Source: Oikopleura dioica (taxonomy: Eukaryota > Animalia > Chordata). Taken from it: DNA of 64,000 bases. The position numbers were made by a program, and so were the translations under genes. Below are positions 17,061-44,724 of this stretch, piece by piece (position 1 is the stretch's first letter; each line of letters starts with the position of its first letter). Location: NCBI GenBank assembly GCA_907165135.1, contig OU015568.1, forward strand, positions 5,828,001-5,892,000. Direction: 5' to 3'. A model generated the notes under the pieces. The model searched no databases. It worked only from the letters and a program-made list of their open reading frames with translations, and had not been told where the DNA came from.

Positions 17061-17234
17061 GTTAAGGGTGGGTTTTATACGAGAGTTTCTCATGGCCTAC
17101 TGGGGCTCAAAGCAACCGACAGGGTCGCCGAATCAAACAAGTGGAAGTGATGAGGTTTTCAACAGGTAAATGAATGATGATGTCGAGAGCTTTTTCGATA
17201 GAATCTCCTTTTTTTCAGCCCTGTTTCTTCCCGA

Positions 17235-21515: not shown

Positions 21516-21909
21516 TTTAATGAATATTTAGTCTTTGTTCGGCTTATTTTTGAGGAGCAAACAGGATGTACTTGAATCATTATGGGGATGACTTATTAGC
21601 TTTAGACTCGGGATCGAAAAGGACTTATTTACTTATAATAAAGGGAAGGCGTCTGGAACCGACTGAAAATGCCAACAAAATTTTAAAATGTTTGCAAGCA
21701 GCAAATTCTAACACTATGACTGACACCATAATACGCAAACAAGTCATTGTGCTTTACGTTTCGCAATTTCAAGAGATTTTTTAACCAAGAATGGAGAGGT
21801 CTTTGCCAAAGTTATCAAAAAAATAGGAAAAATAATTTTATTATGTATTATGAATTAGTAATCATTATTTATGACAAGTTAAATTTTTATGTTTGATAAT
21901 TCGATGAAA

Positions 21910-24144
21910 GAAAAACGGAAGGTTTGGGTCAATCGAAGATGCTCCCTTTGAAAACGACCGCGGAGTCACAAAAGCTGTCGACAAGGAAAGTGGTGCGACT
22001 GTTATGATCAAGTGGATCACGGCCAAAGGGCCAAAGTATATCAAAGCAGCGGAAGAAGAGGCGCAAAAACTGCGAGATTTGAGCGCACAGAGCCGGTTTT
22101 TCGTCAAATTCATCGACTTTTTGCCAAAAATGCGGCCGGACTGGTGGGAATGGAGTATTTTGTCCTTTATCGTCATGGAGTTCTGCCCCGGTGGCTCTTT
22201 GAAGGACTGGATTGATGCAAGAAAACCCCAAGGTCGGAGAACTACTGTCAAGGAAGCGACTGTAATCGGAACGCAAATTGCTTTGGCGCTGAGTTTTTGC
22301 CATTCTCGAAAAATTGCTCACTTGGATGTCAAACCCGCAAATGTGATGATGATGAGCGATGGCTTCACTGTAAGATTGAACTTGAGAACTATATCTCAAA
22401 AACATTAAGATCAAACTGGGCGATTTCGGCATTTCAACACTTCTCGATTCAGTTCGAGACACTATTACAACCAAAGGCTTGCAAGGAATCGTCGAGCATA
22501 CTCTTCTCTACATCACTCCAGGAAATTTTTAAATGACTGAAGTTCGCTGAAAAAGGAAGTAGGGGTTATCCTTCGAGCTTGCCTCGAATTCACTACATGC
22601 CTCCTGGCGCAGCTATAATTCGAGCCGCTCGAATGTTACAGATGTCATTTGAGCGCCTATAAATTATACTTTCTCTTACCCTTTTCAGAAAACTTTTGAC
22701 GCAGAAGACTTTTATTATATACCTTTAGCTCGAATTTTAGGTAGTCGAAATACGCCTATTGCATTCGAGCACCTCGAATTATAAGTTTTCAAGAGACATT
22801 TATAACATTCGAACGACTCGAATTATAGCTGCTCCAGGAGGCATGTAGTGAATTTGAGGCAAGCTCGAAGGATAGCCCCTCACTACGCTGAGAAATCGCG
22901 GGTAAACACAAATGCTCCGAATTCAGCAGCCTTGGACTTAACACTAAAAATAAGAGCAGAAAATGAAAATTTTGACAGAATTTTTGAGAAACCGGATCGA
23001 CTCGGAATCGCCAAGAATCGACGTTTGGGGATTTGGACTTGTTCTTCAAGAGGTGATTACCCTTGAGCACGCCTTTGGTCGTCAAGAAGGACAGCCAGCT
23101 GATGATATCAGAATTGGTAAAAATCAACACTTTTTATCCTTATTTATCAAAAATTCTCTACAGTCGAAAACATGAAGTTTGGAAAACGAACTAATTTTCA
23201 AATCTTCGGAGAAACGGAGGAATTCGGGGAATTCGAAACTCTGATTCAAAAATGTCTTCGTCCAACTAGAGAATCGCGCCCAAATAACATGATGATTGTG
23301 AAGAACGAAGAGATCTTCTCCGATTTTGTCCAACGGATCGAGCGAGGGGAGCTTCCAAGTGATATCATGGCAACTTCAGGGGAAATGATAGAAAAATTAC
23401 GAGATGAAAATCGGCAAAAAGATCAACAAATTCAAGTTCTCGAGAATATTATCAAAAATCAGATTCGCGATTTTGAAAGCCTCAAAAAAGAGTTTGAAGA
23501 GGAAAAAGCAGCTGGACATGAGGATCTTATAAACCACGTTGATGAGTTCACTCAGGAATTGGAAATAATAACGACTGAAAGGTAAATCAGTTAATTATAA
23601 AAAAAGTCTGCAATAACAGCTCTCTTATAGAAACGATCTTGTTGCCGAAAACAAATGCATCAAGGAGCGAAACGAAACTCTCGACACGAAGAACAAGCAA
23701 ATGGAACTCGATCTCGCTGCAAAAGACGAAGAAATAAAGCAAATTCGAGCCGAATTCCTTGAAGGAGCAGTCAAGCGAGCCGATCACATCAAGCTCAAGA
23801 ATGACTACAATGCTCTTATTGACGAACTGGAGAAGCAAGAAGCTCGAGTCAAAAAAGAAATGGTTTCAAAGGCTGCTTTTGCCGCGATGGAGCGAAGCAA
23901 GGAAAACTACAAAAACAAGCTCATCGAGAAAAACGAAGAAATTGAGCTATATCACGAAGAAATGGAAGCTCATTTTTCTAAGATAATGAATTTACAAGAA
24001 AATCAGCAAAAAACCTATCAAGAATGGCTTCTAACAATGAAGAAGAAGAAGGAGCAAAAATGGATACTAGCGCTTGAAAACTCAAAAATGCCGAAGAAAC
24101 CAGAAGCTGCTTCTCTTGCTGCTACGGTCAAGCCTCAAAAATGA
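21910..24144 (+). CDS. Ser/Thr protein kinase - coiled-coil gene, copy 2; its C-terminus is replaced by an MPKKPE... fragment and it has no RING
   Basis: Same kinase motifs as copy 1. Coiled-coil exons are shared with 36552-38350, and the stop is at 24144. The start exon is not resolved. Confidence 0.7.
22560..22880. mobile_element. Palindromic MITE in the GA-AG intron of kinase copy 2
   Basis: ~90-bp inverted arms (TCCTTCGAGCTTGCCTC...CTACATGCCTCCTGG vs CCAGGAGGCATGTAG...GAGGCAAGCTCGAAGGA). It is absent from copy 1. Confidence 0.8.
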
Positions 24145-24243
24145 AATTTCTGGTGACGAAGAAGGCAAGCAAACGGGCCTTTTTCGATTCAGAAATTGAA
24201 CCTGAAATCTTTGATTTAAGTGTTATAAATAAATTTTAACCTT

Positions 24244-24517
24244 CGTGGAAAGCTACATCAACACCCCACGGCGATGCTGCTGTTGCAATCTTGGTTCAAT
24301 CTGTTATCTACATCTTTGTGCAAATCTGTGCAGTGCGAGCCACAGCGGGTCATTCCTAGAGAACCCGTTGTGGTAAGTACAACTTCTATCTTCTCAGTAA
24401 CTTTGACTAAACTAGTGCTTTCCGTATTTATTGGAAAAGTACAGAAACAACAACATTTCGACTCGTTACTTGTACGCATTCTTCGATCAGCAGGCGCAGC
24501 AGGCTCGCACTTCCACG
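24244..24517 (+). repeat. 5' LTR
   Basis: CGTGGAAAG...CTTCCACG; it matches 35319-35592 with no difference found by eye. Confidence 0.95.
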
Positions 24518-24532
24518 TGGTAACTGCAAGTG
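24518..24532 (+). promoter_or_regulatory. Putative primer-binding site (tRNA not identified)
   Basis: TGGTAACTGCAAGTG directly after the 5' LTR; TGG is complementary to tRNA CCA. Confidence 0.6.
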
Positions 24533-24582
24533 AAAGTTTTATCACGACTGATTCTACTTGTTCGAACTCCCCCCGAAGAGTC

Positions 24583-25984
24583 ATGAGCGGTACATCGCTA
24601 ACTGAAATCGTCAACGCTGGAAAAGGGACGCTCTCAGCAGCAGACCTCAAGAGCAAGGCGAAAACAAGAAAAGTGATCGAAGCTCTCGCACAATCACAAA
24701 CGGACCAGTACGTCTCATGCGACATGATACTTCGCGCGAAATGGCTGTGGACAGGTCATGGCCAGGACTTAACGCCGAAAGACAACAAGCTGGGTGTACC
24801 GACGACGTTTGTGGATCTGGTGAAGATGGTGCAGAGTAAAGCACTTGAAAGAGCCGACATAACTGCCTCAAACGAAGAGTACTTGAGGTACATCGCTGGA
24901 ACTGAAGTGACCATCGAAAAAAGAAGGTGGCTACAGTATAGAGATCCAGCAGCGACGGAGTCTGACATCAACAAGGACTCGGAGAGAGAAAGCTCAGCAT
25001 TCTTCGAGAAATTGAAGAGTGACAAGTACTCTGATGCAGAACTTCTAGTACAAGCGACACGGAAAGCACGCACGATTATGAAAACAGCACTAGGATCGGA
25101 TGACCCAACGATCATATCCATAAAGAAGTCAGTACTTCGAGGGGGTCATTACCGAGACTTAAACGAATTCATTTCGATCTGCCAGGATCAGGATGGTTGC
25201 CAGGACATAGCGAACGAAAACGTAGCGATTACGGATTTTGCGCGGGAACTCAAACGGAACTTGTCGCACAATCTGGGTCAAGCGAATCTGAAGCAGCTGG
25301 CACTATTCTATTCGGGCGCACTACAAGACAATTTGGCTGCTGGCGATGACAAGAAGGTGAAAACACAGAATGTCGACGGCAGAAAGCTGAGCAGAAGTCT
25401 TGCGGAAGAAGAATCGCCCATCATCTCAAGAACAGCAGTAGCGTTAGCTTTGACTCACTGCGATGACCGAACTCTAACGAGGATAGAGCGGGAATATAGA
25501 TCTCAATCGGGAAAAACAACATCACCGGAGGATCTCCCGCTCGATCTAACGAAGTTCCTTTCGATCGCAACGCTGGAGGCGGCGAAGACGAGCCAAAAGC
25601 GTTGGAGTAAGGAAGGTTGAAAGCGAACCGAAGAGCGAGGTCACGGAGGAAGTAAAGTTCGTAAAGTCGAAGCAGGGCAAGAAGGGGAAAAAGGATGATA
25701 AGAAGAAAGGGGAAGGTCAAAACGTCCAGAAAAAGGAGGACGAGAGAAGCCCAAACGAACCGGAGAGACCACCCTGCCCCTACTGTGCTCTAAGATTCAA
25801 CACGGTGGTATTTCACTCGAAGGGATGGAGATGCCGCAGCAAGTACATCACAAACGAACGAAAACACTACGATGGCAAAGCAAGACAGGAGAAAAGGGAT
25901 GAAAGGAAGGGCGAATCACTGAAGCAAGTCACAGAATCATCGAGTGTCTACAGCGCGTTGAAGCTGAGTGAAGATGATCTATGA
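24583..25984 (+). CDS. gag: Gag, with a +1 frameshift near 25595; ends at TGA 25982-25984
   Basis: ATG at 24583, and frame 1 is open to 25620. Frame 2 carries a lysine-rich tail and a CX2CX9HX5C knuckle (25775-25834) and is in frame with pol. Confidence 0.8.
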
Positions 25985-28900
25985 CTAGAACGAGTGCACG
26001 CCGTTGGAGCGAATTCAAAGAGTCTACTGCCAACTCTGAAGATGGAAGCTCGCGGAAAAGCACAAAGCCTCGTTAAAATAAGCGTTCAGCTGGACACAGG
26101 AGCCGAAGTCACGTGTATTGGAGAACGGATTCTGGAGAAACTGGACCACAAAGTAAAATGGCAGAGAAGATTCGTGAAAGGCGTAAGCGGCAAAAGAATC
26201 GGAATCATGAACGAAAGAAACGAGAACAAAGTTTGTGACATAGAGTTGATGGTGAATGGAAATCCATGGATGATCAGCGACGCCATAGTCTTGGAAAGCA
26301 TTGACGGACTACTGATGGGCGTAACAGACATGGATGGGAACACATCAATCGACATGGTCAATAGAAGAATCGTTTTCGAAAAGTTCAAGGTCGCCGCAAG
26401 CTATGACCGACAAAACGTACTGAAAATCAGTACAAAGCACGAACTGTCAGACGGAAACTTCGAACCAGATGCCAGAAAGACCTACAAGGAAAAACTGGAG
26501 AAGATGAGAAAAGAAGCTCGAGAATCGTCGACGGTGGATGACATCGTACTTGGTGAAGTAGTCAAAGAAAACCCGAAGCTGGAGGAGCGACTCATGACCA
26601 AGATAAGAGACAAGAAGTACAAGAAGGTGTTCTCAAAAGTCACAGGATGCCTTCCAAAAGAATTCGAGATATCAGCGCCGATGATGAGAGTGGAACTATC
26701 GAATCAAGTCACCAGGCAAAAGAACGAGCAAATGTCCGATGAAAAGAAGGAGATTGTAGCGAAACATCTGGACGAACTTGCTAGAGACTACATCGTGGTA
26801 TTTCCACAAGATCATGGAATCTCGGTCAAAAACATCATACCAATCATGGTTGTCGAAAAGAGAGACGACCAAGGTGAAGCCATCCCACTGGCTCAATCGG
26901 CGAGGATCGTGGCTCAGGCACACAGAAGCGTGAACCTGTGGACAAAAGCCCCTCCAAGAGTAACGGATGAACTGAAGGACGTTCTAGCAAAAGCAGCGAA
27001 GGCGTCGAAGAACAAGTTCATGATGAAGACGGACATCTCTCAAGCGTTCTTCCAACTACCGACGGAGAAGGCGCTATGGCCGTATTTTGGAGTGTATCAC
27101 CCCTATAAAGGGGTGATGTGCTATACTCGAGCGAGCCAGGGATGGATCGCCAGCATGGGAATGGTGAGAGAAGCGTTCCTGAGAATCTTCGAGCCGCTGA
27201 AGAAGTACATGGTGCGGTATGCCGACGATGTGTTCATCAGCGCAAACAACGAGGACGAGTTTGTTCTCGTTGTCACAAGATTTTTGGACATCTGCGCGCA
27301 CTTCAATTTGAGCCTGAAAGGGTCCAAAATGGCGATTGGTGTATCGGAGATGAACTTCCTTGGCGCAAAAGTCAAAGGAGGAAAGATCGTTGCTTCACCT
27401 CATCAAGCTCAGAAGATAAGAGATTACGACATCTCGACGATAAAAACGGTGTCGGATCTCAGAAGCTTTCTAGGAATACTGGTACCGCTGAGTAAGTTCA
27501 AATGCAGAGCCACCGACTTTCTCGTCCCACTAAGAAAATGCCTGGACAATGATGGAAAGGCGAAGATCGTTTGGACGGAAGAAGCGAAAGAAGCGATAAA
27601 AATGGCGAAGAAAGCGATGGACGAACTCACGGAGCTAACACCATTTGACGAAGATAAACAGCAATACATCGTAGTCGACAGCTCAGCAAAAGGAACAGGA
27701 GCAATCCTGTTTCAAAAGGAGCTAGTGGACGGCAAAGAGATCAACAGAGTAGTGGAATTTTACTCGAGAAAACGACCAGACAGCGAAAGAAAGTACACTG
27801 CATCAAGTTGCATGCTAGAAACAGCAGGGTTGGTTGGAGCACTGTGCTACTGGCGACGATATCTAATCGAGAGCAAATTCCCGACGATTGTATTCACTGA
27901 CTCGATGCCACTAACGATGATAGCAAAGAGATGGACGGAGAACTTGACGCCGAGCGACATTGTATCAATAAACAATTTGTTCAAGGCTATCCTAGGCTTA
28001 AGAATCGTAGTTAGACATCTGCCGGGAAAAAGCATAGAGATCAGTGGCGTGGATTTCATCAGTCGCAGCTCGGGTCACATGGAAGAATGTGATGCGAAAC
28101 GCTGCAAGATTTGTGAGATCAGTCAAACCCCGAGAAGTGATCAATCTCCATTCATCTCGGAAGAAAAGTTGGAGGAAATCAACAAGGAAGTCAGAAAGTT
28201 GAAAGACTGGCATTCATCGAAAAGAATCATGATCGTCGACGACCAATTCACCGAGGAAATGAGCAACGAAATATGGTCGGCGAATTGTGATGAAGTAGTT
28301 GAAGTTGATTACAACAAAGAAGCATTCCAGACAGTGGCGATGGCACTCAGGGAAAGAAAAGCTAGAGACTTACTGGATTTCTTGAAGGACGAGAAGACGC
28401 TGAGGAAGATGCAGCTCTCGGACAAGCTACTGAAAGAAGTAATCAAGTACGTGGAAAAAGATCTGAACCCACCGCCACGAAAACAACGACTAAACACGCT
28501 ATGCAAGAAGGCATTCTTGGAGAAGGGCTACCTAAAAATCAAGAGATAGATAGGGACAGCGGAGTATGAGCTAGTACTAGTTCCAGAACATTGCGCTCTG
28601 AAAGTGATAAAGATAGTGCATGACACAGTCGGGTGCAATAGTCCAACTCAACTTACGAACAATGTCAGAAGATACTTCGATCTCCAAAATGTCAGAAATC
28701 ACGTGCTGAAGTTTGTAAATCAATGCTACAAATGTACGCTGATGAGACGACCAGACAACTTCGAAGCAAAACCAATGAAGGAAGTCCCAGTGCCAAGTAA
28801 ACTTGGGGAAGTCATATTCGTGGATGAGATACACAGAACGGATAGATTCAAGAGACCGCTGAAGATCTATTTCGCCACGGAAGCCATCAGCCGATTTGCA

Positions 28901-30430
28901 GTAGCACTACCGAGCAGAAATCACACGAATACAGAAGGATTTGTAGAATTCATGTTTCTGGCGAAGCAACTATTGTCTCCACTACAATCAACGAGGAGCA
29001 AAGTCATCGTAAGATGCGACCGCCACTCAGTCCATAAATCAGAAGAAACAAAGAAAAGTCTTGAGGAACTGGGAATGGAAGTATCGATTTACGAATCTAC
29101 AACTTTCTCGAAGAACATAATACCGGAACAAGATGCGAGGATCGGCCTTTTCTCGAAGTTACTAAACGCGGTGCAGAATGACCCATCGAAATCGGTTTTA
29201 GAAGCTACAAGCTGGGCTTGCGCTCAGTACAATCACACGTTATCATCAGGGAACTTGGCACCGGTCGAAATAATGACTGGAAGAAAGGCTGTAACGCAAG
29301 AACCGGTGGACATAAACCTCGACAGCTTGATCGACGATATCAAGTCGAATAGAAAGACGAAAAGAGATGCGGCGGACAAGTCAAATGCATCAAAGAAGAA
29401 GTCGAAAAGGCTGAATCTAGTGGAAAAAGGAAAAGCGACGTCGGAGGAGGAAACGGAGATAGACGTTGGCCAGATCATCAGAACAGCGCAGAAATGGGAC
29501 AAAAACGATCTCGACAGACTATACAGAGTTACAAGCATCGAATGGTCCAGAAGAGAGGTCAAAGCGGTCAAAGTGAACGCGAGAAACAAGACGAAACCGA
29601 AAACGATAAGTTTCAGCGCGATTGATGCAGTGATAAGTCAGGAAGTGAGGACAATCCAAGAAAACCTCATAGACAATAGCATCGTGAGAAGCTGGATTGT
29701 CACGAAGAATGGTTTGTCAGTCTGGGAAGAAGCTCCGCAAGATCACATCGGACCAAGGGCCCCGAGAATGCCGACATTTGATGATTCGGGCATCTCACAA
29801 GGACCACCAGGGTCAGTAATGCCACCAACTCCGTTACCAGAAATTGTTGAAGAACCGGGCGAATCCACACCAAAATTCGACTCACACATCAGCTCAGCGA
29901 TCGAATGGAGAAACCCGAGGAAAATCAATCCGACGGAAGAAAGATTCAACTGGATACCATCGCCGGAAGAAGTCCTAGAAACTACGGATGAAGGAGACAA
30001 CTCAATGTCGACTGTCAAGAGTTTCGAAACGTTGATGAATTGCTCGAAGAACTCATCGGAACTGAATGAGGAAGACATGAAAGAACTAGAAAACTCATTC
30101 GAATGGATAAATGAGGATGAAATGAAAGAAAAACAACCCAGGAGATCAACTAGAAAAACCTGGAGACCTGCAAGTTATGAAGAAAAAGCTCGAATGAAGA
30201 AAACTAATGAGAAGATATCATCTTTTCGTCTTTATTCGTCATCATTTCAAGTGAAGAGAGATCAAACAGTCTCTTTAAAGTTTCCCGAGTCGTGTCCAGC
30301 GTCAGCATCGTTGGAGGTTTCTGCATCGAACGGGGTGAAACACCTGAATGAAGATTTAGAAGAAGCGAGCTCACATCTGTACCTACATGTCTATCATCGC
30401 GCGGTAGCTCAACTCAGAAGGCATCGGTAG
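25985..30430 (+). CDS. pol: Pol (protease, RT, RNase H, integrase), interrupted by an in-frame TAG at 28547-28549
   Basis: LDTGAE (26093), YADD (27218-27229), RNase H motifs VDSS / ETAGL / FTDS, and integrase D...D(35)E with exactly 35 residues. The natural end may be TAA-TGA at 30205-30210. Confidence 0.9.
30231..30236 (-). promoter_or_regulatory. AATAAA polyadenylation signal of the antisense gene
   Basis: TTTATT on the + strand, 25 nt past the antisense stop codon. Confidence 0.6.
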
Positions 30431-33400
30431 AAGTCGAGTTGCTAGCATCTTTGCCGCCAGAGCTGGGTGGAGATCCTTGCCCACCTTCGAAAGCATCTTC
30501 TCCGTCGGATACATCCGGCAAAGTACTTTCATAGTCGCGGAGAAGTTGTTCTTCAGATACTCCACGAGGATTGCCGTCAAACGTAACTTCGTGCTGGCGG
30601 TACAGGTGAAGAGTTTGCCGACTGATGGCCGCACCACGGCTTCGTAGAAAGACGAGATCTCCCCGATGGTGCGCTGAGCTAAGAGTTCAAAGGTTATCAT
30701 CTACTTGTGGCGCATACCTGGCGCGCCGGACTCCCATGTTCGCTCAGTCTCAGCAGGGTCGAATGGCACGAAAGTGCTCGGCCGCACTTCGGGTCGATCG
30801 CCTCGCTCGCAGTCAGCTTGCAGAAACCGGAACGTAGCCACGATGTCGGCGTCATCACCGCCATAATATTGCACATGGCGTCGTCGTTCGTAGTTCTCGC
30901 GCCAGCTTGGCGGGAGAAGTTCTTAAAACAAACGATTACTCGCGGAACTCACTAGAAATCATTACCTGGATGAAAGCGACACTTGGTGGTGCGCCGTTTT
31001 CCTTCATCGGAGGAATACGGCTCTTCACAATCTCCAGTACCGAGCTCACCGCGCTCGTACAAGGTCTTCACGTAGCAATACAGCCCACCAGTGAACGCTA
31101 GAAATACACGAATCAATCACGATTCTACAATAAGCAAGTTTACCTTCGAAGGGGAGCACTGCCATCAACTTCGGAAGAATCATCAGCAAGTGCGACGAGC
31201 TATCACCGGCTTGATGCGCGAAATGAACACCCGGCAGTCCAATATGACGCACGGGCTTGTCAGCGGGTGAAGGTCCAGCGGAAGACGCACGCCACGTAAA
31301 AGTATCTTGATATGGCGGGGCCGAAACGTCATCGACAGGGCGAAGATCGGCATAAACCGGAGGATGTCGACGTCCTTGTCGATCGTAGAAGCGATCCTTA
31401 ACAAAGAAGCCGTTAAGTATCGCAGAGAAGAAACATTAGCTTACCTGGTTGAGCTGCGCTGGTGCAGTCGCTCGATACTTGCCATGACGTCCATCAGGCG
31501 GGAAATCAACCTGACTGAACTTGGACATCTCTACAGAAGCACACCCAGCGAAAAAGGATTCAATCATCCAAAATGTACGCTTGCGTCCACCAGCGCCGCA
31601 AGACAGAGTCAAACCAGGAACACCGCGAACAGAGAAGTCCATCACGAAGCAGGACTCGGGCGGTGTAGACGTACTCAGGGCGTTGGGTCGAAGCCCATAC
31701 TCAGCAGTCATCACAGAAGCGATGACAAGTACAGACTCTAGCATGCCCAAGCCGTGAACATCGAGATCTGGAATGTTCACGCCCCAGCTCTGCATACCTG
31801 AATGATCATGTTAAAGAAAGAATCAACGCGAAGAAGTACTTACACAAACCGCTAAGCCTCATCGTTTCATCAACAGGCGGCCGAATCACTTGCTGCATCG
31901 AAGCCCGATAGAGATCCATCGGCGTCAGCAAGAACACTTCTTCGCACGGTCGATCGCCAAGACGAAAAAGGCGTCGACAACACATTCGAAGATGAGCGTC
32001 CGGATAGACAGTGTCAATCCGAGACAAAGCGAACATGACATCAGGAGCTCTAAACATGCAGAGTTAGGGAAGTCACTTGATATTGACAAGAAGAACTCAA
32101 GTCCCAAGATTACATACCGGTGCTGGCGATGTTCATCGAATTCGCGCATCGGCAAATCGTACGATCCGAAACCGACTCCGCGGAATGCGCCGTATCCGAA
32201 GTGACAAGCGTCGTTCTGTGAGTCGAGGATGAAGGCATCGTGTCGGAAAAGATCCGAAGAAGGGTCGAAGCCAAGCGGTAGATCGAGCAGAGGCTCGAGG
32301 AACTTTTCAGCAAATACAGAGGGACCCAGCGAATCCTCAAGAGCACGCTAAAGAAGTTCATTAGTTTTAGTACGACGGCAGTAGACTTACAAGATAGGAG
32401 CAGCCAGGGGATCTATCACCATGAAACATTGGATGCCCCAGAAGCGTCTGACTCAAGCCGAAATCTTGACGGTCGACCAAAGAACGCCCATAATAGCCGC
32501 CGTCGAGCAGAAGATTCCAAACACCTACACTCCAGTCGTCATCCAGCAAAGTCGGCCGACCACGCAGATAATCTTGAAAGAAAAGTTTAGTAAAACGAAG
32601 AAATCAACGAAGAACTACCTGGCAGAGTCACAACGACCCGACTTAGTCGATTGAAGGGCCGTCGAGGGCCGCTGGAAGAGATCTTCCCGCCCGACTGCAG
32701 GTAGAAGACATCATGAGCACGATCAGCATCAGTCCGGGGTCCGACGTAAGGTGCAGCAGCGTACCGACGAAGGACAGGCTCCAACAAGATGGGCGCTTCT
32801 TGAGAAATCAGCGGCAGACCATCACACGGGTCCATGTCGACGTGTAGATAGCTGTCGCACTCATCTTCATCGTGACAGCGATGGCGTTTGGCAGCCTCTT
32901 CTCGGACCGAAGAAACAGGAAATCGTGGAAATCGGCGCCGACGACGATTTGGAGAAGGTGGACGAGCGGGAATAGCTGGCACGGGCACGAAAGCAGAGTC
33001 GGAAGTGGTCCGGCGTGTCGAAGTACCAGCAAGAAACTGCTGCGAACGAAAAGCAGGCAGCAAGAAATCGCGGAAAGCTTCACAACCAGAGCCGCGTCGT
33101 CCCTTATCCGATTGCGAAGTACTCTTCGTGACGGGATAATGAACGAGATCTACAACAGAATTTTAGAAGACAGAAAAACAAAGAAGAGATTTGGACTTAC
33201 TCGCACTGCCAAGCGGCCGACTGACCAATTTCAGTTGAGCCATACATCGCGAGAGAGATGTCTCGGTCGTTTCGGTAGATACATCTCGAGTTGCAGCTTT
33301 GAGATCAGCAATTGGGCCAATTCGTCGAGAGTATTTCAACTGGTACGCGGGAGAGCAAGCAGCGATCTTTTGGGAATCCTTCAGCGTTCGTTCGTAGTCA

Positions 33401-33921
33401 CGAGATTCCTCCCAGTTTGAAAACTCCCGCGGAACGGCATAACCAAGATACATCCGGGACGCGTTGTAGTACTGGATAGGCTGATCAACGAGCGGCCGAG
33501 AAGAGATCGATGCATCGTCAGCAACTCCGCGTCGATGCACACTGGTTTTCTTGCCGGTGTCGATCAACAAAGAAGGAGGATCGTAGAAATCGACTCCTGA
33601 CTCAGGAGCACCGAGGGGATGATCCATTTCGGGATCACGAGGACGAGCGGCGACTTCATCAACTTCATCTTTATCTAGAAAGATGGGAGCTTCATCCAGC
33701 GGGCGAGGCTGAGGATTTGGAACTGAACGAACGTCGTTCCGGATGTGTCTGTCCCAGTCATCGCCAGAACCACCGCCAGAAAGGTCGCCACCGCTGCTTT
33801 TCTCGAGCTGATCGCGTAAAGTAGGAGTTCCTCGCCGTGGGTGTTTCTCAATGAACTCGCCGGACTCCAACGACTCCTGAGTTGAAGGATCTTCTTCATC
33901 AGAGCCAAGATCCCAAGCCAT
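30262..33921 (-). CDS. Antisense 11-exon gene inside the retrotransposon, 1061 aa, no recognisable domain
   Basis: Exons are 33921-33201, 33149-32619, 32572-32391, 32347-32118, 32049-31844, 31797-31445, 31396-31144, 31097-30966, 30921-30718, 30678-30387 and 30343-30262. Ten GT-AG introns of 51, 46, 43, 68, 46, 48, 46, 44, 39 and 43 nt separate them. The total of 3186 nt has no internal stop. Confidence 0.88.
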
Positions 33922-34324
33922 TTCTCTACAACAACTAGATTCCGTCTGAAAAGAAAAGAAAGGATGAATCTAGTTGACAAACAAGCAAAAGTAGTTCAAG
34001 CAGAAGTTTTCTCTAGAAGAATGATCAAAATCCAGCAACTCTCGTAGAAAAGGATCAAATGGAGATGATCTGAAGACTGGTAAACAAGTAAACAAGGTCG
34101 CGAGAGTTTTTCAAATGAAGCGCGGCGTAGGCGGCGCGAAATGGGAGGACCTACGTGTGAACCCGGAGGACCCGCGAAAAGAAGAAAACAACTGCTGAAC
34201 AACAACAACACGAAAACCGGCAAAAGCAGATGGCCGGAAAAATGCCACCGAAACCATGACGCAGAAAGCTTCACTTTGCAAAGAGTCAACTAGTGATCGC
34301 ACGCGTCTTGAGAGAATTTGAAGC

Positions 34325-35257
34325 ATGAATCGGCTGGCAGCAGCGTTGGAAACCTCGAAGTTATTGCCGAAGAGCTGGAACTATCCGAGCCAAGTGGACG
34401 ACTCGCGACTCTCCGAACGCTCGAAGAAGATATTGAAGAAGTTCGAAAAGTTGGACGAAACAGGCAAGCGATTGCCTGCGAGTCTGATGTCGGAGCGGGT
34501 CCACGCCTTCCACTTTGAATACGAGAAGACGGTGGCGGAGCTGATGGAAGTCCTCTCGGACAAGGGCATCGAGAAGAATGGAGGCAACCAACTACTTGCG
34601 TTCGCCATATTTAATCCGTATAGTGGCGGATATAGAATCCTGATGAAGCAGACGAGCTTTCGGGCTGAACTCCTGCTGCAATCTCCAGGCTATTGGCCGA
34701 GAGACTCCAACTATCCTGGGGACCATCAATACTCCCGTGACCTGAACCGATCGGTCCGAATGCAGTCGGCGATTGAAGGTGGTACTCTTGAGGTGACAGT
34801 GAGCTCTGACGCGGCTAGCCGATCGTCGGAGGAGGCGTTGGGACTGCTGTCATCATCGGAGGAGTTGCCAACGATGGCGGAGCTGTCGATTGTGAAAGGA
34901 TCCGGGGATATTGAAGCGGAGGAACCGAGCACGTCAGGGTTGAAGACATTCTCTCGAAACGGATCGACGAGGAAATCCGACAAGCGAAAGCGGGAGCAAC
35001 TGGATTCAACCTTGACAACGTCAGCTAAGAAGCAGAAGAAGAGAGAGCCACTCAAAGTTACTACATTCTTCGAGAAGAATTCGTCGTCGGACGGTGGCAG
35101 TGACTTCAATGATGAAACTTTCGATCATTTGGTCGTAGTTAGCTCTGAAGAAGAGAAAGCGCCAAAGAAGAAGGTGCTTCCACGACCGAAGGTGCTGTCT
35201 AAGATCGTCCGACCGTACAATAAGAAGAGAGCCGAGAAGAAGAAGTCAAAGAAGTAG
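34325..35257 (+). CDS. 310-aa accessory ORF of the retrotransposon with an acidic/Ser-rich middle and NLS-like basic clusters; not env-like
   Basis: Intact ATG-TAG ORF just upstream of the PPT, with KRKR, KKQKKR, PKKK and KKKSKK clusters. No signal peptide or TM segment is visible. Confidence 0.75.
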   Translation: MNRLAAALETSKLLPKSWNYPSQVDDSRLSERSKKILKKFEKLDETGKRLPASLMSERVHAFHFEYEKTVAELMEVLSDKGIEKNGGNQLLAFAIFNPYSGGYRILMKQTSFRAELLLQSPGYWPRDSNYPGDHQYSRDLNRSVRMQSAIEGGTLEVTVSSDAASRSSEEALGLLSSSEELPTMAELSIVKGSGDIEAEEPSTSGLKTFSRNGSTRKSDKRKREQLDSTLTTSAKKQKKREPLKVTTFFEKNSSSDGGSDFNDETFDHLVVVSSEEEKAPKKKVLPRPKVLSKIVRPYNKKRAEKKKSKK

Positions 35258-35298
35258 ATCCCAATCAAGAACTGCATCGAAGAGCCTACTCTTCTCCT

Positions 35299-35316
35299 GA
35301 AAGGGGGGGGAGGGGG
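35299..35316 (+). promoter_or_regulatory. Polypurine tract
   Basis: GAAAGGGGGGGGAGGGGG, 2 nt before the 3' LTR. Confidence 0.9.
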
Positions 35317-35318
35317 CA

Positions 35319-35592
35319 CGTGGAAAGCTACATCAACACCCCACGGCGATGCTGCTGTTGCAATCTTGGTTCAATCTGTTATCTACATCTTTGTGCAAAT
35401 CTGTGCAGTGCGAGCCACAGCGGGTCATTCCTAGAGAACCCGTTGTGGTAAGTACAACTTCTATCTTCTCAGTAACTTTGACTAAACTAGTGCTTTCCGT
35501 ATTTATTGGAAAAGTACAGAAACAACAACATTTCGACTCGTTACTTGTACGCATTCTTCGATCAGCAGGCGCAGCAGGCTCGCACTTCCACG
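35319..35592 (+). repeat. 3' LTR
   Basis: Direct repeat of 24244-24517. Confidence 0.95.
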
Positions 35593-36551
35593 CTTTATAC
35601 TTTTTCTATATTTTTCCTTGCTTGAATTATTAAAGATACAGTATCTATTTGGGCAAAAAAAATTTAAAGGATTTTTCTAAATCAAGGTTCAGCTCAGTTT
35701 AAAAACTCAATCAGTAGGCGATGAGTTAAGTCTCCTCCGCGTTAATAATTGCCACTTACAAAAGCTCAGTCTCTTTAAACAAAAAATGACAGGGGCAAAA
35801 TTTTTGCTTAACAATCGCTAATTCGCGAATCCGGTAAAAAGCGCTTGTTTTATCCGCTCTCTTGTCTGCTGTGAGAACGGAACGAAAATGTGGACGTCTG
35901 CTTTCAAATTTGAATAAGAGAGAGGCGGCCCATGCAAAATGCAATCTATTCCAAATTGTAGCGTGAGCGATCAACTTCCGATTCGCGTCATCAAATTGGC
36001 AGTGAAGGAATTTTAGAAAGAAGCTTTTTTCCTAAAAATTTTTCATCATTTTTCAAAAATTTTATTTGATAAGGCTTTCGAAACTTATTTAACCTTGGAA
36101 AATGATATTATCTTATCTCAAAAATTACATAAAAAGCCTCATAATTGGTTCTTGAATGCTTGCCGAAAGAATTTTGAAAAATCAGCAAGGCGAAAAAAGA
36201 AGAACAAATAGAAAATGCAGCAATTCTGAATTCGCGTGAGAGGGCAAATATCAAATATCAAATACGCCTTTGCTCAGTCATTTTCCCTTCCAAACACTTT
36301 TCTCGGCCCGCCTCGATTCTCGTTTACTCACGAATAGCCGAGCAATTTTTAAAACTGTGTTTTCGTATTAAAGAGATTCTTATGTCATCTTCGTCTTACT
36401 GGGGCAAGGCAGCTCCGAAGCAGCAGTCTCGTTCACCCAGCCAAACAAGTGGAAGTGATGACCCAGTCTTTGTGAGGTATTTCGAATTGTTTCGAAAGCT
36501 CTATCAAATATTATTTATATTTGAAGTCCTGAAAGCTCTGTTGCTTCTGGA

Positions 36552-38350
36552 ATGCCAAAGAAGCCAGAAACTACTCTTTTTGGTGACTCCAACACGCCTC
36601 AAAGATCAACTCAGCAGGAGCATCAAGCAACTTCTGCCTCTGATGAGTCATCAACTTCCTCTGGAATGCCGCAAAAGCCAGAAGCAGCGAGGTTAGGCGG
36701 TACAGTAAAGCCTAATTCAGAGCCTAACGCCGCCAAAAAACAGCAATTCAAAAGACTCGAGCAAATTTCTGGCGACGAAGAAGGCGAGCAAACCGGCAAT
36801 TCTCGATTTAAAAAGCAAGTCGTCGAGGAGGAAGAACAACCAGCCGCTCTCCCTCGAGGTCAAAAACCGCCAAGAGCGAATCAACGAAAATATCTTCCTC
36901 CGAGAAATACCGATGGAGAGGAACTTCGTCAACTTAGAGTGAGAAACCAAGAGCTCGAAAATGATTTGAGAATGAAAGAACAACAGCTGAAAAACCAACA
37001 AGAAGAATTTGAAGAGGAAAAAGCTGCGGAACACGAGGATCTGTTGAACCAAGTTGATGACTTGACCGAACAATTGGACAAAATAACGATGGAAAGGTAA
37101 ATTTTTCGTTCAAACGAATCAGAAATTGAGAGTCTCCCTTGATCTAGGGTGGGCAAATGCTTGGGGGGTTGGGCTCCTGTGAGGCTTTGCTCTTCTGTGA
37201 TTGGCGGTTAAAAAATATACTTAGCTCTTATTGTCTGAGGGGCCCCCGACCCAACTGCGGCAGTGGTAATCCCCAAAGTTTTCGAGGATTTTGCCCACTC
37301 TAGGTCTTGATTAAATGAAAAAAATTTGAAATTATTTTACAGAAACGATCTTGTTGCCGAAAACAACGACATCAAGGAGCGCAACGAAACTCTCGACGCC
37401 GAGTACAAGCAAATGGAACTCGATCTCGCTGCAAAAGACGAAGAAATAAAGCGAATCCGAGCCCAAGTCCGTGAAGGACCAGTTAAGCGAGCCGATCACA
37501 TCAAGCTCAAGAATAACTACAATGCTTTAATCGACGAACTGGAGAAGCAAGAAGCTCGAATCAGAAGCGAAATGGTCTCAAAGGCGGATTTTGCGGCGAT
37601 GGAGCAAAGCAAGGAAAACTACAAAAACAAGCTCATCGAGAAAAACGAAGAAGTGGACCAGTATCACAAAGAAATGAAAGCTCATGTTTCTGGAATAATG
37701 ACTTCAAAGGAAAATCAACAAAAGACCTATCAAGAATGCCTCAAAACGATGGAACAAAACGAGCAGAAGTGGAGACGAGCGCTGGAAAATTCTGAAAATC
37801 GACATCGCTATTTTATCAGCAGAAGCAATGAGGCAGAATATGAGCTGAATCGGGTGAAAACTGAGCTTCACTGGAAAAACCAAGATCTTCAGGTCTCTAC
37901 TTATTTTCAAATTCATCATTCAATCAAAACTTTTAGTCGCTAAATGGTCGAATTCACGAGCAAGATCGCGAAATTTCCCGACTTTCCAGAGCCGAAGAAG
38001 ACCTCCATCGAAACATCAAAGAACTGATGACTAAGCATGAAGACATTGTTCATCAAAAAATGCAAGCAGAACAACATCTTCAAGATCATGCTCAAAGAAA
38101 CGAAGCTGATCAGAAACGACTTCAAGAACTCAAAAGACAGGTTTGGAATTCTGACCATAAGCGGGATCATTGATTTGATTTTAGCAAGATGAAATGGCGA
38201 GGCAATTGCAAGTTGGACAGGATGAACGAAATAGGCTCATGACGAGTCGCAAAAATTTTGAAAAAAGAGTCAAAGACAATGAAAATCAATTCAAAAACAA
38301 GCTCAAAGAGCAAGAAGAAAAACTCGAGACATTTGAAGAACTTGAAGAAG
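36552..38350 (+). CDS. Coiled-coil gene with a low-complexity MPKKP... N-terminus instead of a kinase; probably once spliced to the RING exon at ~44739
   Basis: ORFs 36552-37100 and 37326-37943 are paralogous to 23500-24080. The last exon ends FEELEE|gt at 38350, like the pre-RING exon of copy 1. Confidence 0.7.
37144..37303. mobile_element. Small hAT-like MITE in an intron
   Basis: CTAGGGTGGGCAAA ... TTTGCCCACTCTAG with a degenerate 8-bp flank (CCCTTGAT / GTCTTGAT). Confidence 0.65.
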
Positions 38351-39889
38351 GTACAGTTTGAAGCACTTTTAAGGCCAACCCTTTTAAGGCCACTTTTTCG
38401 AAAAATTCCGAAAATCTGTCATCCTAAAAAAATCCACTTTAAGGCCACTTTCCCTTCAATTTCAGTTCAAAATCCGAAAGTTACAGTGTCACTTGAAAAA
38501 GCTTTCTATCTTCGACTGCGTGATGCCTTGTGTTTTTATTTTTATTTTTCTTTTTGGTATTTTTCGATGTTTTTTCTCGACTTTTTCAATTAACGATGAT
38601 TTCTTACGGTCTTGTTTGAATTTTCACTTAGATTTTGATTCCAATTGTTTCAATCTATAATCATTATATAGCCGTGTAAAAATACGCAGAGGAATGTCTT
38701 AACCCTAGCCGGTCAAGGTACTCCAAATATGGAGCAGGTTTTTACTCATTTCCAATATTTAACGTATAATTTCCAAGAAACTCATTCTGGAGCGGTTTTT
38801 TCTATTGCATCTTGATAGACAGGGTTTAATCTATTTCCCCAAGACCATATAATTTGAGATTTATCATTTTTATAGTCTTATTTGCAGGTAAATCCTGGCG
38901 CCAAATATGGAGTACCTTGACCGGTACCCGAGAAAAACCATTAACTAAATCATCTAGGGTGGGCGAAGCCATTTCGAAGCAGGGGGTTTTTTCCGCCAAT
39001 CAGATGCAAGTATTGGTAACGGGGTTCTCCGCTTTGTGTTGGTGCTAAAAACTCGCAGTGGCCAAGTACAGGCAGGTGTCAAGCTGTGCAAATAGGATGC
39101 AACGGGCCCACCGACACGCGCAGCCTACTGCGATGTCCTGCAGAGACTGGTCCTAGCACCAATTTCGAGCAACGCTCGGTGTGATATAGCTTCAAAATCA
39201 GCAAGCTAAGCCGAGGATAAGCTCAAAAGTGAAGTTTTAAAAGAGTAAAAAATTGGAATTTCATAAAACCTTGTAGAGTAATTTTTTGTAGATTTTACTT
39301 CTGAGATCGAAAATATATTTATCTGACCATAGGTAGGCTTACCGCGGTGTTTTTCCATTTTCAAGGTTCTTTTGAAAAATCTCCCCATACTTTCTGAACA
39401 TATGCATCAAGACAAGCCTTGAAAAACTGCACTTGCAGAATTTTCGATATGAGTCATCTTACCCCCTTTTTTGGGGGATTTTTAGCAAGAAAAAAAGCAC
39501 TTGTTTGATTAGAAGCGGCTTTTGAGTGCGTGCTAGATCGATTTTGATAATTTGATGCCTACCATGTGAAAGATAAGCGCAAGATGCATCGATACATATG
39601 AAATTTATTATTGCGGAGTACTTCCTTCATATGATTCTAGAGCTCCAAAGTTGACACAAGCAGCCAGATACGAAAATCCAATATTATCAACTTCTGATAT
39701 AAGCATGCTATGATGATGTTTTATAGCTCAAATTGAAGCTTGTAAATTACTGAACAAAATAGAGTGGTATTTTTTGACCAGCCGGTTGTGCTTCCAGTTC
39801 GTCGCGGTTCATACCCGGAAATAGGTCAAAATGTAGAAATATGTATATCAAATGAATAAATTTTCAACAGCGAATCTTTTGAACATATT

Positions 39890-41230
39890 CAGAAGTTCAA
39901 CCGCCCGGTTATTATTGCGGTTCATGGTGGTTCATGGTGGTTCAAGCGCAGAAATGAACAAAATAGCAGCAATATGTATATCAAATTGAAACATAAATTA
40001 AGAACATTCATAAAATCATTTAATAAGCCCGAACCAACCGGTTGTTCTCCCGGTAAATGGCGGTTCCAAACGGTTCAAGCCTGTTCAAGCTAAAAACATG
40101 CTCAAAGAGGTTCAATATGGTTATCAAATGTATTCATTTACAATAGCAAAGCTTTCTAGAATATTATGAAATTCAACCGCCCGGTTATTCTTGCGGTTCA
40201 TGGTGGTTAATCGTGGTTCAAGCCCAGACATGAACAAAAAAGCATCAATATGCATATCAAATTGAAACATAAATTAAGAACATTCATAAAATCATTTAAT
40301 AAGCCCGAACCAACCGGTTGTTCTCCCGGTAAATGGCGGTTCCAAACGGTTCAAGCCGGTTCAAGCTAAAAACATGCTCAAAGAGGTTCAATATGGTTAT
40401 CAAATGTATTCATTTACAATAGCAAAGCTTTCTAGCATATTATGAAATTCAACCGCCCGGTTATTCTTGCGGTTCATGGTGGTTAATCGTGGTTCAAGCC
40501 CAGACATGAACAAAAAAGCATCAATATGCATATCAAATTGAAACATAAATTAAGAACATTCATAAAATCATTTAATAAGCCCGAACCAACCGGTTGTTCT
40601 CCCGGTAAATGGCGGTTCCAAACGGTTCAAGCCGGTTCAAGCTAAAAACATGCTCAAAGAGGTTCAATATGGTTATCAAATGTATTCATTTACAATAGCA
40701 AAGCTTTCTAGCATATTATGAAATTCAACCGCCCGGTTATTCTTGCGGTTCATGGTGGTTAATCATGGTTCAAGCGCAGAAATGAACAAAATAGCAGCAA
40801 TATGTATATCAAATTGAAACATAAATGAAGAACATTCATAAAATTATTTAATAAGCCCGAACCAACCGGTTGTTCTCCCGGTAAATGGCGGTTCCAAACG
40901 GTTCAAGCCGGTTCAAGCTAAAAACATGCTCAAAGAGGTTCAATATGGTTATCAAATGTATTCATTTACAATAGCAAAGCTTTCTAGCATATTATGAAAT
41001 TCAACCGCCCGGTTATTCTCGCGGTTCATGGTGGTTAATCGTGGTTCAAGCCCAGACATGAACAAAATAGCATCAATATGCATATCAAATTGAATCTTGT
41101 ATTAAGTACATTCGTCGAATCATTGAATAAGCCCAAACCAACCGGTAACTCTCGTGAGAAAAGGCGGTTTCTGACGGTTCAAGCCGGTTAAAGCCGAATA
41201 TATGCTCAAAGTGGTTCAATATGTACGTCA
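39890..41230 (+). repeat. 276-bp tandem satellite, about 5 copies
   Basis: CCGCCCGGTT recurs at 39901, 40177, 40453, 40729 and 41005. Confidence 0.95.
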
Positions 41231-41324
41231 AATGAATGTTTATTAAAAAGCACGTCTTTTGAAACTTTAACGAGATCCGGACGCGTGGTAAAACACTTAA
41301 TATGCGAAAACCAGACCCATTTAT

Positions 41325-43432
41325 TCAATTCAGTCTGCGACGGGGCCAAGCCGACCCGAAGGGGAGGCCAGGCCCGCTTAAATAATTCAGTCTGAGACGA
41401 GGCCAAGCCGACCCGAAGGGGAGGCCAGGCCCGTTCATACAATTCAGTCTGAGACGGGGCCAAGCCGACCCGAAGGGGAGGCCAGGCCCGTTTATTCAAT
41501 TCAGTCTGAGACGGGGCCAAGCCGACCCGAAGGATAGGCCAGGTCCGTTTAAACGATTCAGTCTGCGACGAGCCGAAGCCGACCCGTAGGAGACCAGGCC
41601 CGTTCAAACAATTCAGTCTGCGACGGGGCCAAGCCGACCCGAAGGGAAGGCCAGGCCCCTTTATTCAATTCAGTCTGAGACGGGGCTAAGCCGACCCGAA
41701 GGAGAGGCTAGGCCCGTTTATACAATTCAGTCTGAGACGTGGCCAAGCCGACCCGAAGGAGAGGCCAGGCCCGTTTATACAATTCAGTCTGAGACGGGGC
41801 CAAGCCGACCCGAAGGGGAGGTCAGGCCCATTTATTCAATTCAGTCTGCGACGGGGCCAAGCCGACCCGAAGGGGAGGCCAGGCCCGTTTATTCAATTCA
41901 GTCTGAGATGGGGCTAAGCCGACCCGAAGGAGAGGCCAGGCCCGTTCAAACAATTCAGTCTGCGACGGGGCCAAGCCGACCCGAAGGGGAGGCCAGGCCC
42001 CTTTATTCAATTCAGTCTGAGACGGGGCTAAGCCGACCCGAAGGAGAGGCTAGGCCCGTTTATACAATTCAGTCTGAGACGTGGCCAAGCCGACCCGAAG
42101 GAGAGGCCAGGCCCGTTTATACAATTCAGTCTGAGACGGGGCCAAGCCGACCCTGAGGGGAGGCCAGGCCCGTTCAAACAATTCAGTCTGCGACGGGGCC
42201 AAGCCGACCCGAAGGGGAGGCCAGGCCCGTTTATTCACTTCAGTCTGAGACGGGGCCAAGCCGACCCGGAGGGAGGCCAGGCCCGTTCAAACAATTCAGT
42301 CTGCGACGGGGCCAAGCCGACCCGAAGGGGAGGCCAGGCCCGTTTATTCAATTCAGTCTGAGACGGGGCCAAGCCGACCCGAAGGAGAGGCCAGGCCCGT
42401 TTATACAATTCAGTCTGAGACGGGGCCAAGCCGACCCGAAGGGGAGGCCAGGCCCGTTCAAACAATTCAGTCTGAGACGAGGCCAAGCCGACCCGGAGGA
42501 GGAAAGGCCGGTTCAAACAATTCAGTCTGCGACGGGGCCAAGCCGACCCGAAGGAGAGGCCAGGCCCGTTTATACAATTCGGTCTGAACCGGGGCTAAGC
42601 CGACCCTGAGGGAGGCCAGGCCCGTTCAAACAATTCAGTCTGCGACGGGGCCAAGCCGACCCGAAGGAGAGGCCAGGCCCGTTTATACAATTCAGTCTGA
42701 GACGGGGCCAAGCCGACCCTGAGGGGTGGCCAGGCCCGTTTATTCACTTCAGTCTGAGACGGGGCCAAGCCGACCCGGAGGGAGGCCAGGCCCGTTCAAA
42801 CAATTCAGTCTGCGACGGGGCCAAGCCGACCCGAAGGGGAGGCCAGGCCCGTTTATTCAATTCAGTCTGAGACGGGGCCAAGCCGACCCGAAGGAGAGGC
42901 CAGGCCCGTTTATACAATTCAGTCTGAGACGGGGCCAAGCCGACCCGAAGGGGAGGCCAGGCCCGTTCATACAATTCAGTCTGAGACGGGTCCAAGCCGA
43001 CCCGGAGGGGAGGAAAGGCCGGTTCAAACAATTCAGTCTGCGACGGGGCCAAGCCGACCCGAAGGAGAGGCCAGGCCCGTTTATACAATTCGGTCTGAGA
43101 CGGGGCTAAGCCGACCCGAAGGGGAGGCCAGGCCCGTTTATTCAATTCAGTCTGAGACGGGGCCAAGCCAGACTGAATTGTATAAACGGGCCTGGCCTCC
43201 CTTCGGGTCGGCTTGGCCCCGTCTTAGACTGAATTGTTTGAACGGGCCTGGCCTCTCCTCAGGGTCGGCTTGGCCCCGTCTCAGACTAATTGTATAAACG
43301 GGCCTGGCCTCCCCTTCGGGTCGGCTTGGCCCCGTCTCAAACTGAATTGTTTGAACGGGCCTGGCCTCCCCTCAGGGTCGGCTTGGCCCCGTCTCAGACT
43401 GAATTGTATAAACGGGCCTGGCCTCTCCTTCG
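41325..43432. repeat. 57-bp GC-rich minisatellite, ~32 forward and ~5 inverted copies
   Basis: Unit CAATTCAGTCTGAGACGGGGCCAAGCCGACCCGAAGGGGAGGCCAGGCCCGTTTATA; orientation flips at ~43167. Confidence 0.95.
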
Positions 43433-44724
43433 TGAAATGATTTTATGAATGTTCTTAATTTATGTTTCAATTTGATATACATATTGCTGCTATTTTGTTC
43501 ATTTCTGCGCTTGAACCACCATGAACCACCATGAACCGCAATAATAACCGGGCGGTTGAACTTCTGAATATGTTCAAACGATTCGCTGTTGAAAATTAAT
43601 TCATTTGATATACATATTTCTACATTTTGACCTATTTCCGGGTATGAACCGCGACGAACCGGAAGCACAACCGGCTGGTCAAAAATACCACTCCATTTTG
43701 TTCAGTAATTTATAAGCTTCAATTTGAGCTATAAAACATCATCATAGCATGCTTATATCAGAAGTTGATAATATTGGATTTTCGTATCTGGCTGCTTGCG
43801 TCAACTTTGGAGCTCTAGAATTATATGAAGGAAGTACTCCGCAATAATAAATTTCATATGTATCGATGCATCTTGCGCTTATCTTTCACATGGTAGGCAT
43901 CAAATTATCAAAATCGATCTAGCACGCACTCAAAAGCCGCTTCTAATCAAACAAGTGCTTTTTCTTGCTAAAAATCCCCCAAAAAGGGGGTAAGATGACT
44001 CATATCGAAAATTCTGCAAGTGCAGTTTTTCAAGGCTTGTCTTGGTGCATATGTTCTGAAAGTATGGGGAGATTTTTCAAAAGAGCCTGAAAAATAGAAA
44101 ACACCGCGGTAAGCCTAGCTATGGACCATAGCTCACCTAAGCCTTCCCTTGACGAGAAAGCTCGGGTACCAATTGGTATTGTCTGCTCAAAATAAAGTAC
44201 AGAAAAATCTGCCAAGGCAAAAAGAGCAGATTATAGATAGCGATTCATATATAAAAAATATTTTCATAACTTTATTATAACCAAGGGAATCTTGATTTTT
44301 ACGAAGATGATTTCGAGGTTCATAATCGAAATCTCCGTAAAAATAACCATATAAGGCGAGTTTTCATAAAATTTCAATCTTCATTCTTTTTATCTTCACT
44401 TTTAACCGGCTGAGCTTGATCCGATTTTGCAGCTAAGTTCCCCTTGTTTGTGTTAACTTTGGCTCAATCCATCTCACACCGAGCCTTGCTCAGAGTTGGT
44501 GCTAGGAGCAGTCTCTGCGGGACCTCCCAGTGGGTAGCACATGTCGGTGAACCTCTTGCATCCTATTTGCACAGCTTGACATCATGCCCGTACCTGCCCA
44601 CTGTGAGTTTTTAGCACCAACACAAAGCGGAGTGAGCCTTGGTAACATGAACCAATCAGAGACGAGAAAACCCCTAAGATACTTCCGAATCTTTTGCCCA
44701 CCCTAGTTTATCATTCAGGACCTT

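Follow-up and report, generated by a model that had tools for sequence, protein, structure and literature searches.

Introduction

To our knowledge, most of the accessory genes known from LTR retrotransposons come from plants and fungi, and what they do is largely obscure. Among the closest described systems are the Tor3b and Tor4b elements, which, like the element analysed here, are Ty3/gypsy retrotransposons of the same host group with a gap after pol and a third sense gene ahead of the 3′ LTR. Their third gene is env, and capped env RNA starts within pol (Tor3b) or in the space behind it (Tor4b), from a promoter referred to as Penv (Henriet et al. 2015, PMC4402516). Transcription from Penv was found to be LTR-independent by 5′ RACE and reporter assays (PMC4402516). 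However, the third gene of Tor3b and Tor4b encodes a membrane glycoprotein with seven cysteines, whereas its counterpart in position here, ORF310, encodes neither a membrane segment nor a cysteine. Moreover, the main-text sections consulted on Tor3b and Tor4b mention no antisense gene and no divergent gene pair (PMC4402516).

Antisense additional ORFs between pol and the 3′ LTR have been described for the plant elements Retand, Grande and RIRE2 (PMC7264820, PMC11963269), and gene23 of maize Grande is described as having an upstream promoter of its own and as encoding a nuclear product (PMC7264820). The element analysed here likewise carries an antisense gene between pol and the 3′ LTR, in the manner of the aORF-3R type, and this gene is conserved in a related locus (L001). 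Some Retand elements also hold sense ORFs without membrane segments in the region from pol to the 3′ LTR, as is the case for ORF310. In contrast, the antisense genes of Retand, Grande and RIRE2 are plant genes that mostly encode a TRP28 domain, for which the exons scanned here gave no match; introns go unmentioned in the available parts of one description (PMC11963269), and a head-to-head promoter is mentioned in the available parts of neither description (PMC7264820, PMC11963269).

An antisense accessory gene behind pol of a Ty3/gypsy element is furthermore known as brtn from the Boty-like elements of Botrytis (as cited in PMC7264820 and PMC8365987), but brtn is fungal and a single gene, as opposed to the two-gene module here. 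Foamy viruses do have two accessory genes, Tas and Bet, with an LTR-independent promoter near the 3′ end, and their accessory products comprise one transactivator and one defence antagonist (PMC6669543). Both of these are sense genes of an enveloped retrovirus, however, and no sequence link to the module here was found. VANC of the VANDAL elements, finally, is a transposon-borne accessory protein with an anti-silencing function, and its likeness to ORF310 lies in the proposed role only (PMC13547354): VANDALs are plant DNA transposons, and VANC has a MAIN-related fold. An earlier note on this DNA had likened ORF310 to VANC and to lentiviral accessory proteins; Pfam returned no sequence link to either.

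While internal promoters and antisense accessory genes are thus already known singly, the literature searched contained no Tor antisense gene and no divergent non-env accessory pair (Volff 2004, Denoeud 2010 and the supplement of PMC4402516 lay outside this search). Judging from the DNA, the two-gene accessory module in this chordate Ty3/gypsy element is real and its promoter plausible, while its function is suggested by short motifs. As an animal element with two accessory genes, in a host that completes its life cycle in six days and offers promoter maps and embryo reporters, it makes both the role and the control of such genes testable.

The element and its Pol relatives

The element spans 11.3 kb (24244–35592, plus strand) of the window, by which we mean the whole 64-kb stretch of Oikopleura dioica DNA that was analysed, and holds both accessory genes. 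It is bounded by two 274-bp LTRs of identical sequence (5′ LTR, 24244–24517; 3′ LTR, 35319–35592), with a probable primer-binding site (24518–24535) opening with TGG right after the 5′ LTR, and a polypurine tract (35299–35318) ahead of the 3′ LTR. A probable gag region (24583–25984) was assigned from the ORF list and its position before pol; it comprises two frames (24583–25620 and 25550–25984), and no Pfam family reached the cut-off there. The gag-side frame stops with TGA followed by CTAG (25982–25988), and pol carries on in the same frame; we take this to be a stop-codon readthrough context, offering a possible Gag-Pol route.

The pol frame (25985–28549) encodes protease-like, reverse transcriptase and RNase H domains up to an in-frame stop at 28547–28549. 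RVT_1 (1e-15) and RT_RNaseH_2 (2e-16) both exceeded the Pfam cut-off, and the protease match was weak (E 0.095). Behind the stop follow the integrase frame and a variable tail (28550–30430), the end of which is uncertain past approximately 30.2 kb. Its Pfam rve match (E 0.007) stayed below the cut-off; the frame shares 49–56% identity with the integrase region of five Pol relatives. The resulting domain order of protease, reverse transcriptase, RNase H and integrase is that of Ty3/gypsy elements. Of seven Pol relatives found at E 1e-30 or better, three are named Oikopleura dioica proteins with 55–56% identity. Based on these named relatives and on the predicted introns of 39–51 nt, in a species in which intron length peaks at 47 bp (PMC4122922), this Ty3/gypsy element most likely belongs to the Tor family of O. 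dioica.

The Pol relatives (1104–1334 aa) continue past the site of the in-frame stop, and contigs from three DNA runs match the window in this region. Since these contigs agree on the stop, a full Pol can probably not be made from this copy. The reading frame also breaks near 25.6 kb and near 30.2 kb, at sites where two of the three DNA runs differ slightly in length; both breaks may be assembly errors.

Several features of the element ends were observed along the way. The LTRs end in CG..CG, with a 5-bp inverted repeat (24244–24248 and 35588–35592), instead of in TG..CA. The flanks of the element share three exact bases and show no exact target-site duplication of 4–5 bp, the length described for Tor elements (PMC4402516), and no empty insertion site occurs within the window. 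A perfect splice donor, GTAAGT, lies in the middle of each LTR (24373 and 35448), and AATAAA is absent from the plus strand of the LTR but present once on its minus strand (24432).

ORF310, a sense gene in the place of env

The earlier note had placed a 310-aa sense ORF at 34325–35257, head to head with an antisense ATG (33921) at a distance of 403 bp, and these coordinates were confirmed. This intronless ORF, referred to as ORF310, combines a helical N-terminal half with a low-complexity acidic and basic tail, and its stop codon lies approximately 40 bp short of the polypurine tract and 3′ LTR, inside the element. In 200 dinucleotide shuffles of the region 30431–35318, an ATG-initiated ORF of at least 252 aa never arose (the longest being 244 aa).

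ORF310 had also been claimed to lack a membrane segment and a signal peptide, to carry basic clusters and not to be an envelope protein. Hydropathy reached at most 0.79 over 19 residues, in line with the first claim; as to the second, the hydropathy scan, taken by itself, bore it out to the extent that no hydrophobic N-terminus was seen. Five basic clusters were indeed found, at aa 220, 235, 281, 300 and 305. Tor Env proteins combine a membrane segment at the C-terminus with seven conserved cysteines (PMC4402516), and since ORF310 has neither (no cysteine at all, next to the low hydropathy), the claim that it is not an envelope protein held as well. Its relative P0002 contains two cysteines and has a hydropathy maximum of 0.69.

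P0002 (311 aa) is a full-length relative of ORF310, with 187 of 302 residues identical (62%), the same start methionine and no frame break; it was the only relative among 2932 candidates and is known here from the protein alone. Identity amounts to 72% over aa 1–60, to 69% and 70% in two basic blocks, and to 51–58% elsewhere; the basic clusters of ORF310 are preserved in P0002. A profile search of 1.84 billion representatives returned ORF310 alone, no relatives were found in metagenome or viral contigs, and searches of Pfam, PHROG, PDB sequences and Atlas features gave no match. AlphaFold2 models (two runs on two sequences) were weak, with a mean pLDDT of 43.1 and 47.2. Their best structure matches (Z 6.3, rmsd 4.1 over 76 aligned residues; Z 5.1, rmsd 2.6 over 63) were generic helical hairpins, and a comparison with viral structures yielded no match at E 0.001. 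Models of such low pLDDT indicate neither a known nor a new fold. As far as its sequence tells, ORF310 is a conserved coding gene that does not encode an envelope protein.

Two short stretches in the variable tail of ORF310 are kept in P0002. In SUMO-interacting motifs (SIMs), serines and acidic residues follow a hydrophobic core, and a SIM-like stretch at aa 269–276 (35129–35152, plus strand) shows a hydrophobic core, two serines and acidic residues. The second stretch (aa 245–249, 35057–35071, plus strand) resembles the core of a PIP box, for which the pattern is Q-x-x-aliphatic-x-x-aromatic-aromatic, and the same five residues occur in P0002. Both patterns were written after viewing the sequence, and the shuffle counts are therefore flattering: the SIM-like pattern, which ORF310 and P0002 share at one alignment column, recurred in 29 of 5000 tail shuffles and 3 of 5000 column shuffles, and the PIP-like core was matched in 152 of 5000 tail shuffles. 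A canonical PCNA-binding PIP box was discarded, its Gln being absent from both proteins.

The tail also bears on whether ORF310, within the same gene layout, might instead be an RNA-binding or particle-associated helper that acts in export or packaging of genomic RNA via its basic end. Its last 30 residues do include 15 Lys/Arg and a single acidic residue, and RNA export is described as a frequent role of retroviral accessory proteins (PMC7264820). The SIM-like and PIP-like stretches, however, are kept within an otherwise variable tail and point to docking sites of a nuclear type, and we regard the helper role as improbable.

An antisense partner gene with ten predicted introns

On the opposite strand, between pol and the spacer, a splice model predicts an accessory gene of 11 exons and about 1069 aa (30262–33921, minus strand). 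Its ten GT-AG introns measure 39–51 nt, with uncertain boundaries for introns 4, 9 and 10; T content is 41% in the introns and 26% in the exons, and an AATAAA at 30236 lies 26 nt past the stop codon. The 252-aa antisense ORF in this region corresponds to exon 1 plus read-through.

A metagenome scan with the integrase returned one locus, L001, among 390 candidate stretches, with 44% identity in the best segment. L001 carries a homologue of the antisense gene at the same place, behind pol and on the opposite strand. Because the L001 contig ends inside exon 5, exons 1–4 lie beyond its end, and four of the seven exons that L001 could cover (exons 5, 6, 7 and 9) matched in tblastn at 37–48% identity. 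Exon 8 aligned in the joined model only, and exons 10–11 had no detectable match in L001. The joined antisense model was identical to L001 at 123 of 302 positions (41%), with a score of 436, whereas no more than 67 was reached in 200 shuffles. Two canonical introns that had been set beforehand occur at the same codon and phase in L001 (aa 832 and 876); two further L001 introns were fitted and are thus not independent. By codon position, identity over 245 codons was 54/60/33%, next to 60/67/36% for the integrase, in alignments made as protein, which favours a pattern of this type. The homology to L001, the common introns and the integrase-like codon-position pattern indicate that the antisense gene is an old and selected part of this lineage.

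No Pfam family, Transposase_28 included, was found in ten of the 11 exons scanned singly, a procedure that may miss a family in the spliced protein. Exon 6 retrieved no longer protein among 123 candidates and no PDB, phage, viral-contig or Atlas match, and the one PDB match of exon 7 was at chance level. Both accessory proteins of the element are thus without recognised families, and either could define a new domain. P0002 and L001 each hold only one gene of the pair, and the present element is the only one in which both genes were encountered side by side.

The age of the partner gene argues against ORF310 being a host gene or fragment that this copy captured in a single event and that does nothing for the element. 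Such a capture would agree with the module occurring once in the three DNA runs (among the matches listed), with P0002 being known from protein alone and with pol being interrupted in this copy. However, no host-like family was found for ORF310, which is whole, lies flush with the polypurine tract and shares the A/G-rich composition of gag and pol. We hold capture to be very unlikely, and consider both accessory genes real with high confidence.

A candidate divergent promoter in the spacer

The 403-bp spacer between the two ATGs (33922–34324) emerged from motif and composition scans as a candidate divergent promoter region, its minus-strand half being T-rich. It contains TCTAGA in a TT-rich setting (34012–34017), which, as a consensus match chosen, like the other spacer motifs, post hoc among nine patterns, was present in 24 of 500 shuffles; across the 64-kb window the hexamer is found at 24 sites, one of them inside antisense exon 1. 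Further to the right lies a GC- and CpG-rich band (34120–34180) with two TTTCGCG sites on the minus strand (34141 and 34179). These sites, E2F-like and representing a motif chosen after reading the sequence, occurred as a pair in 4 of 500 shuffles. An ACCATAA with one mismatch, at 34253, is too poor a match to be considered. In O. dioica, 71.6% of male-specific start clusters were found to have TCTAGA 40–50 nt ahead of them, and broad promoters to have a GC band immediately before the start (PMC6389100). Read on the minus strand, the TCTAGA of the spacer predicts a start at approximately 33962–33972, 41–51 nt before the antisense ATG. Seven upstream ATGs separate the start predicted on the plus strand from ORF310, which makes TCTAGA a poor promoter for the latter; ORF310 transcription more likely starts nearer its own ATG, downstream of the GC band. 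A 21-codon upstream ORF (34256–34321), in frame with ORF310 and with its stop 3 nt ahead of the ORF310 ATG, could modulate translation, provided that the RNA begins ahead of it.

It is also conceivable that the spacer promoter serves the antisense gene only and that ORF310 is spliced from a 5′ LTR transcript, perhaps via the GTAAGT at 24373 or a GA donor. The donor in the LTR is perfect, an AG lies 1 nt before the ORF310 ATG so that splicing there would skip every upstream ATG, and env RNA of Tor3a is spliced from an LTR transcript with a GA donor (PMC4402516). The acceptor side, however, fits poorly: an acceptor scan found no plus-strand acceptor near the ORF310 ATG, and the AG in question is not preceded by a T-rich tract like that of the 14 modelled acceptors and scores –2.7, as compared to –0.4 to 8.7, on a measure of composition only. 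The acceptors of Tor3a, for their part, are described as ordinary (PMC4402516). With its AG scoring below all 14 modelled acceptors, LTR-derived splicing of ORF310 is disfavoured, and we rate this reading as unlikely.

Genomic RNA is of the wrong strand for the antisense gene to be read from it, so a minus-strand promoter is needed, either in the spacer or in the 3′ LTR. In the latter case, the antisense gene would be expressed in the manner of HBZ of HTLV-1, spliced to an acceptor in the spacer, with the spacer promoter left to ORF310. A strong T-rich splice acceptor is indeed present (33946–33975, minus strand, AG ending at 33946) only 24 nt before the antisense ATG, and is the best minus-strand AG of the spacer, with a score of 7.8 that the A-rich plus strand itself promotes by making the minus strand T-rich. 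An intron-like GT..AG stretch (34248–34195, minus strand) would also suit this reading, and antisense LTR promoters are known (PMC7264820). On the other hand, no GT[AG]AG donor occurs on the minus strand from 35592 to 34001, which comprises the 3′ LTR and ORF310, although GA donors in about 12% of O. dioica introns (PMC4122922) render missing GT donors a weak argument. Furthermore, trans-splicing, to which 39% of O. dioica genes are subject (PMC6389100), normally shows itself by unpaired acceptors, making the acceptor at 33946 a candidate trans-splice site as well as a candidate 5′-UTR intron end, and the promoter of Grande gene23 lies directly upstream of that gene (PMC7264820). Drive from the 3′ LTR therefore seems to us a distinctly improbable option, and we consider it reasonably probable that both genes are transcribed from the spacer. 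Four RNA runs, which may stem from animals without the element, gave 1, 0, 0 and 0 reads on 29900–35700, and one further contig set, guessed to be RNA, gave one 38-base piece in pol.

Proposed role of the two-gene module

We lean towards a reading in which two conserved non-env genes stand head to head and are transcribed outwards from the spacer, with ORF310 as a predicted nuclear adaptor that aids expression of the element. Genomic RNA would carry both genes through copying. The antisense introns would survive this copying because they are located on the strand opposite to genomic RNA; ORF310 lies on the genomic strand and has no introns. Being the third cistron, 10 kb away from the 5′ LTR, and lacking an acceptor, ORF310 would need a start of its own in the spacer, with the 3′ LTR as the place where its RNA ends. 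For the spacer, two back-to-back core promoters round the shared GC band are more probable than one symmetric promoter, and TCTAGA would drive the antisense gene, in testis. The ten introns would be spliced out of the leftward RNA, which would probably be leader-spliced as well, perhaps in testis. This RNA would be complementary to genomic RNA, so that a separation in timing or tissue would matter, an issue that has been raised for antisense RNA of plant elements (PMC7264820).

The basic clusters would then import ORF310 into the nucleus, and we are inclined, by a small degree, to assign it a nuclear role. There, in what is the weakest step, the SIM-like motif would bind SUMO-modified chromatin factors. 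Such docking might, among other outcomes, lead to relief of silencing or to transactivation, which we put forward tentatively, and an anti-silencing function of ORF310 in particular appears doubtful.

In a more far-reaching version, the env route to the germ line would have been replaced, in a lineage of chordate retrotransposons, by a two-gene cassette, with one divergent promoter that uses the testis core-promoter code of the host to express the ten-intron gene in one direction and a SUMO-docking nuclear factor in the other, and with the pair lifting silencing in male germ cells. We judge this rather unlikely; if true, such an anti-silencing cassette would be the animal LTR-element counterpart of the anti-silencing systems of plant transposons. 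Embryonic somatic expression was predicted to help env-bearing elements only (PMC4402516), and an element that lacks env but has an internal promoter of the testis type would, if real, represent another germ-line route.

Copies in DNA runs and genomic neighbourhood

Copies were assessed on contigs of three DNA runs, which are possibly the source of the window itself and hence not independent of it. Among the matches listed, long contigs span most of 26974–35348 with almost no differences, and the accessory module looks single-copy in these runs. One of the three runs differs at 33919, within the antisense start codon; together with the stop in pol, this variant suggests that the element copy may be decaying.

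The DNA runs also contain a diverged second copy of parts of gag and early pol (24567–26696, about 92–94% alike). It additionally matches the left half of the spacer (33780–34156) before departing from the window, is without ORF310 and is perhaps a deleted relative. Within antisense exon 10, two of the three runs show a contig match of 34 bases only (30543–30576) with both flanks unlike the window, which may reflect a distant gene copy at another genomic site, or chance.

The element sits amid repeats (83–95% alike) of a host coiled-coil-like gene, at 16400–24150 and 35650–38150, without a Pfam match. A foldback-like element at 39492–43963 has inverted arms of 283 bp and 251 bp (99%) that enclose tandem arrays of 276 bp and 57 bp. 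Elsewhere in the window, an intronless 773-aa ORF without a Pfam match (1873–4194) carries short tandem repeats near its end, and a duplication of more than 1 kb (57347–58550 and 62478–63710) shows 91–94% identity between copies 5.1 kb apart, with sulfatase exons (54927–55775) and kinase exons (59464–59955) nearby.
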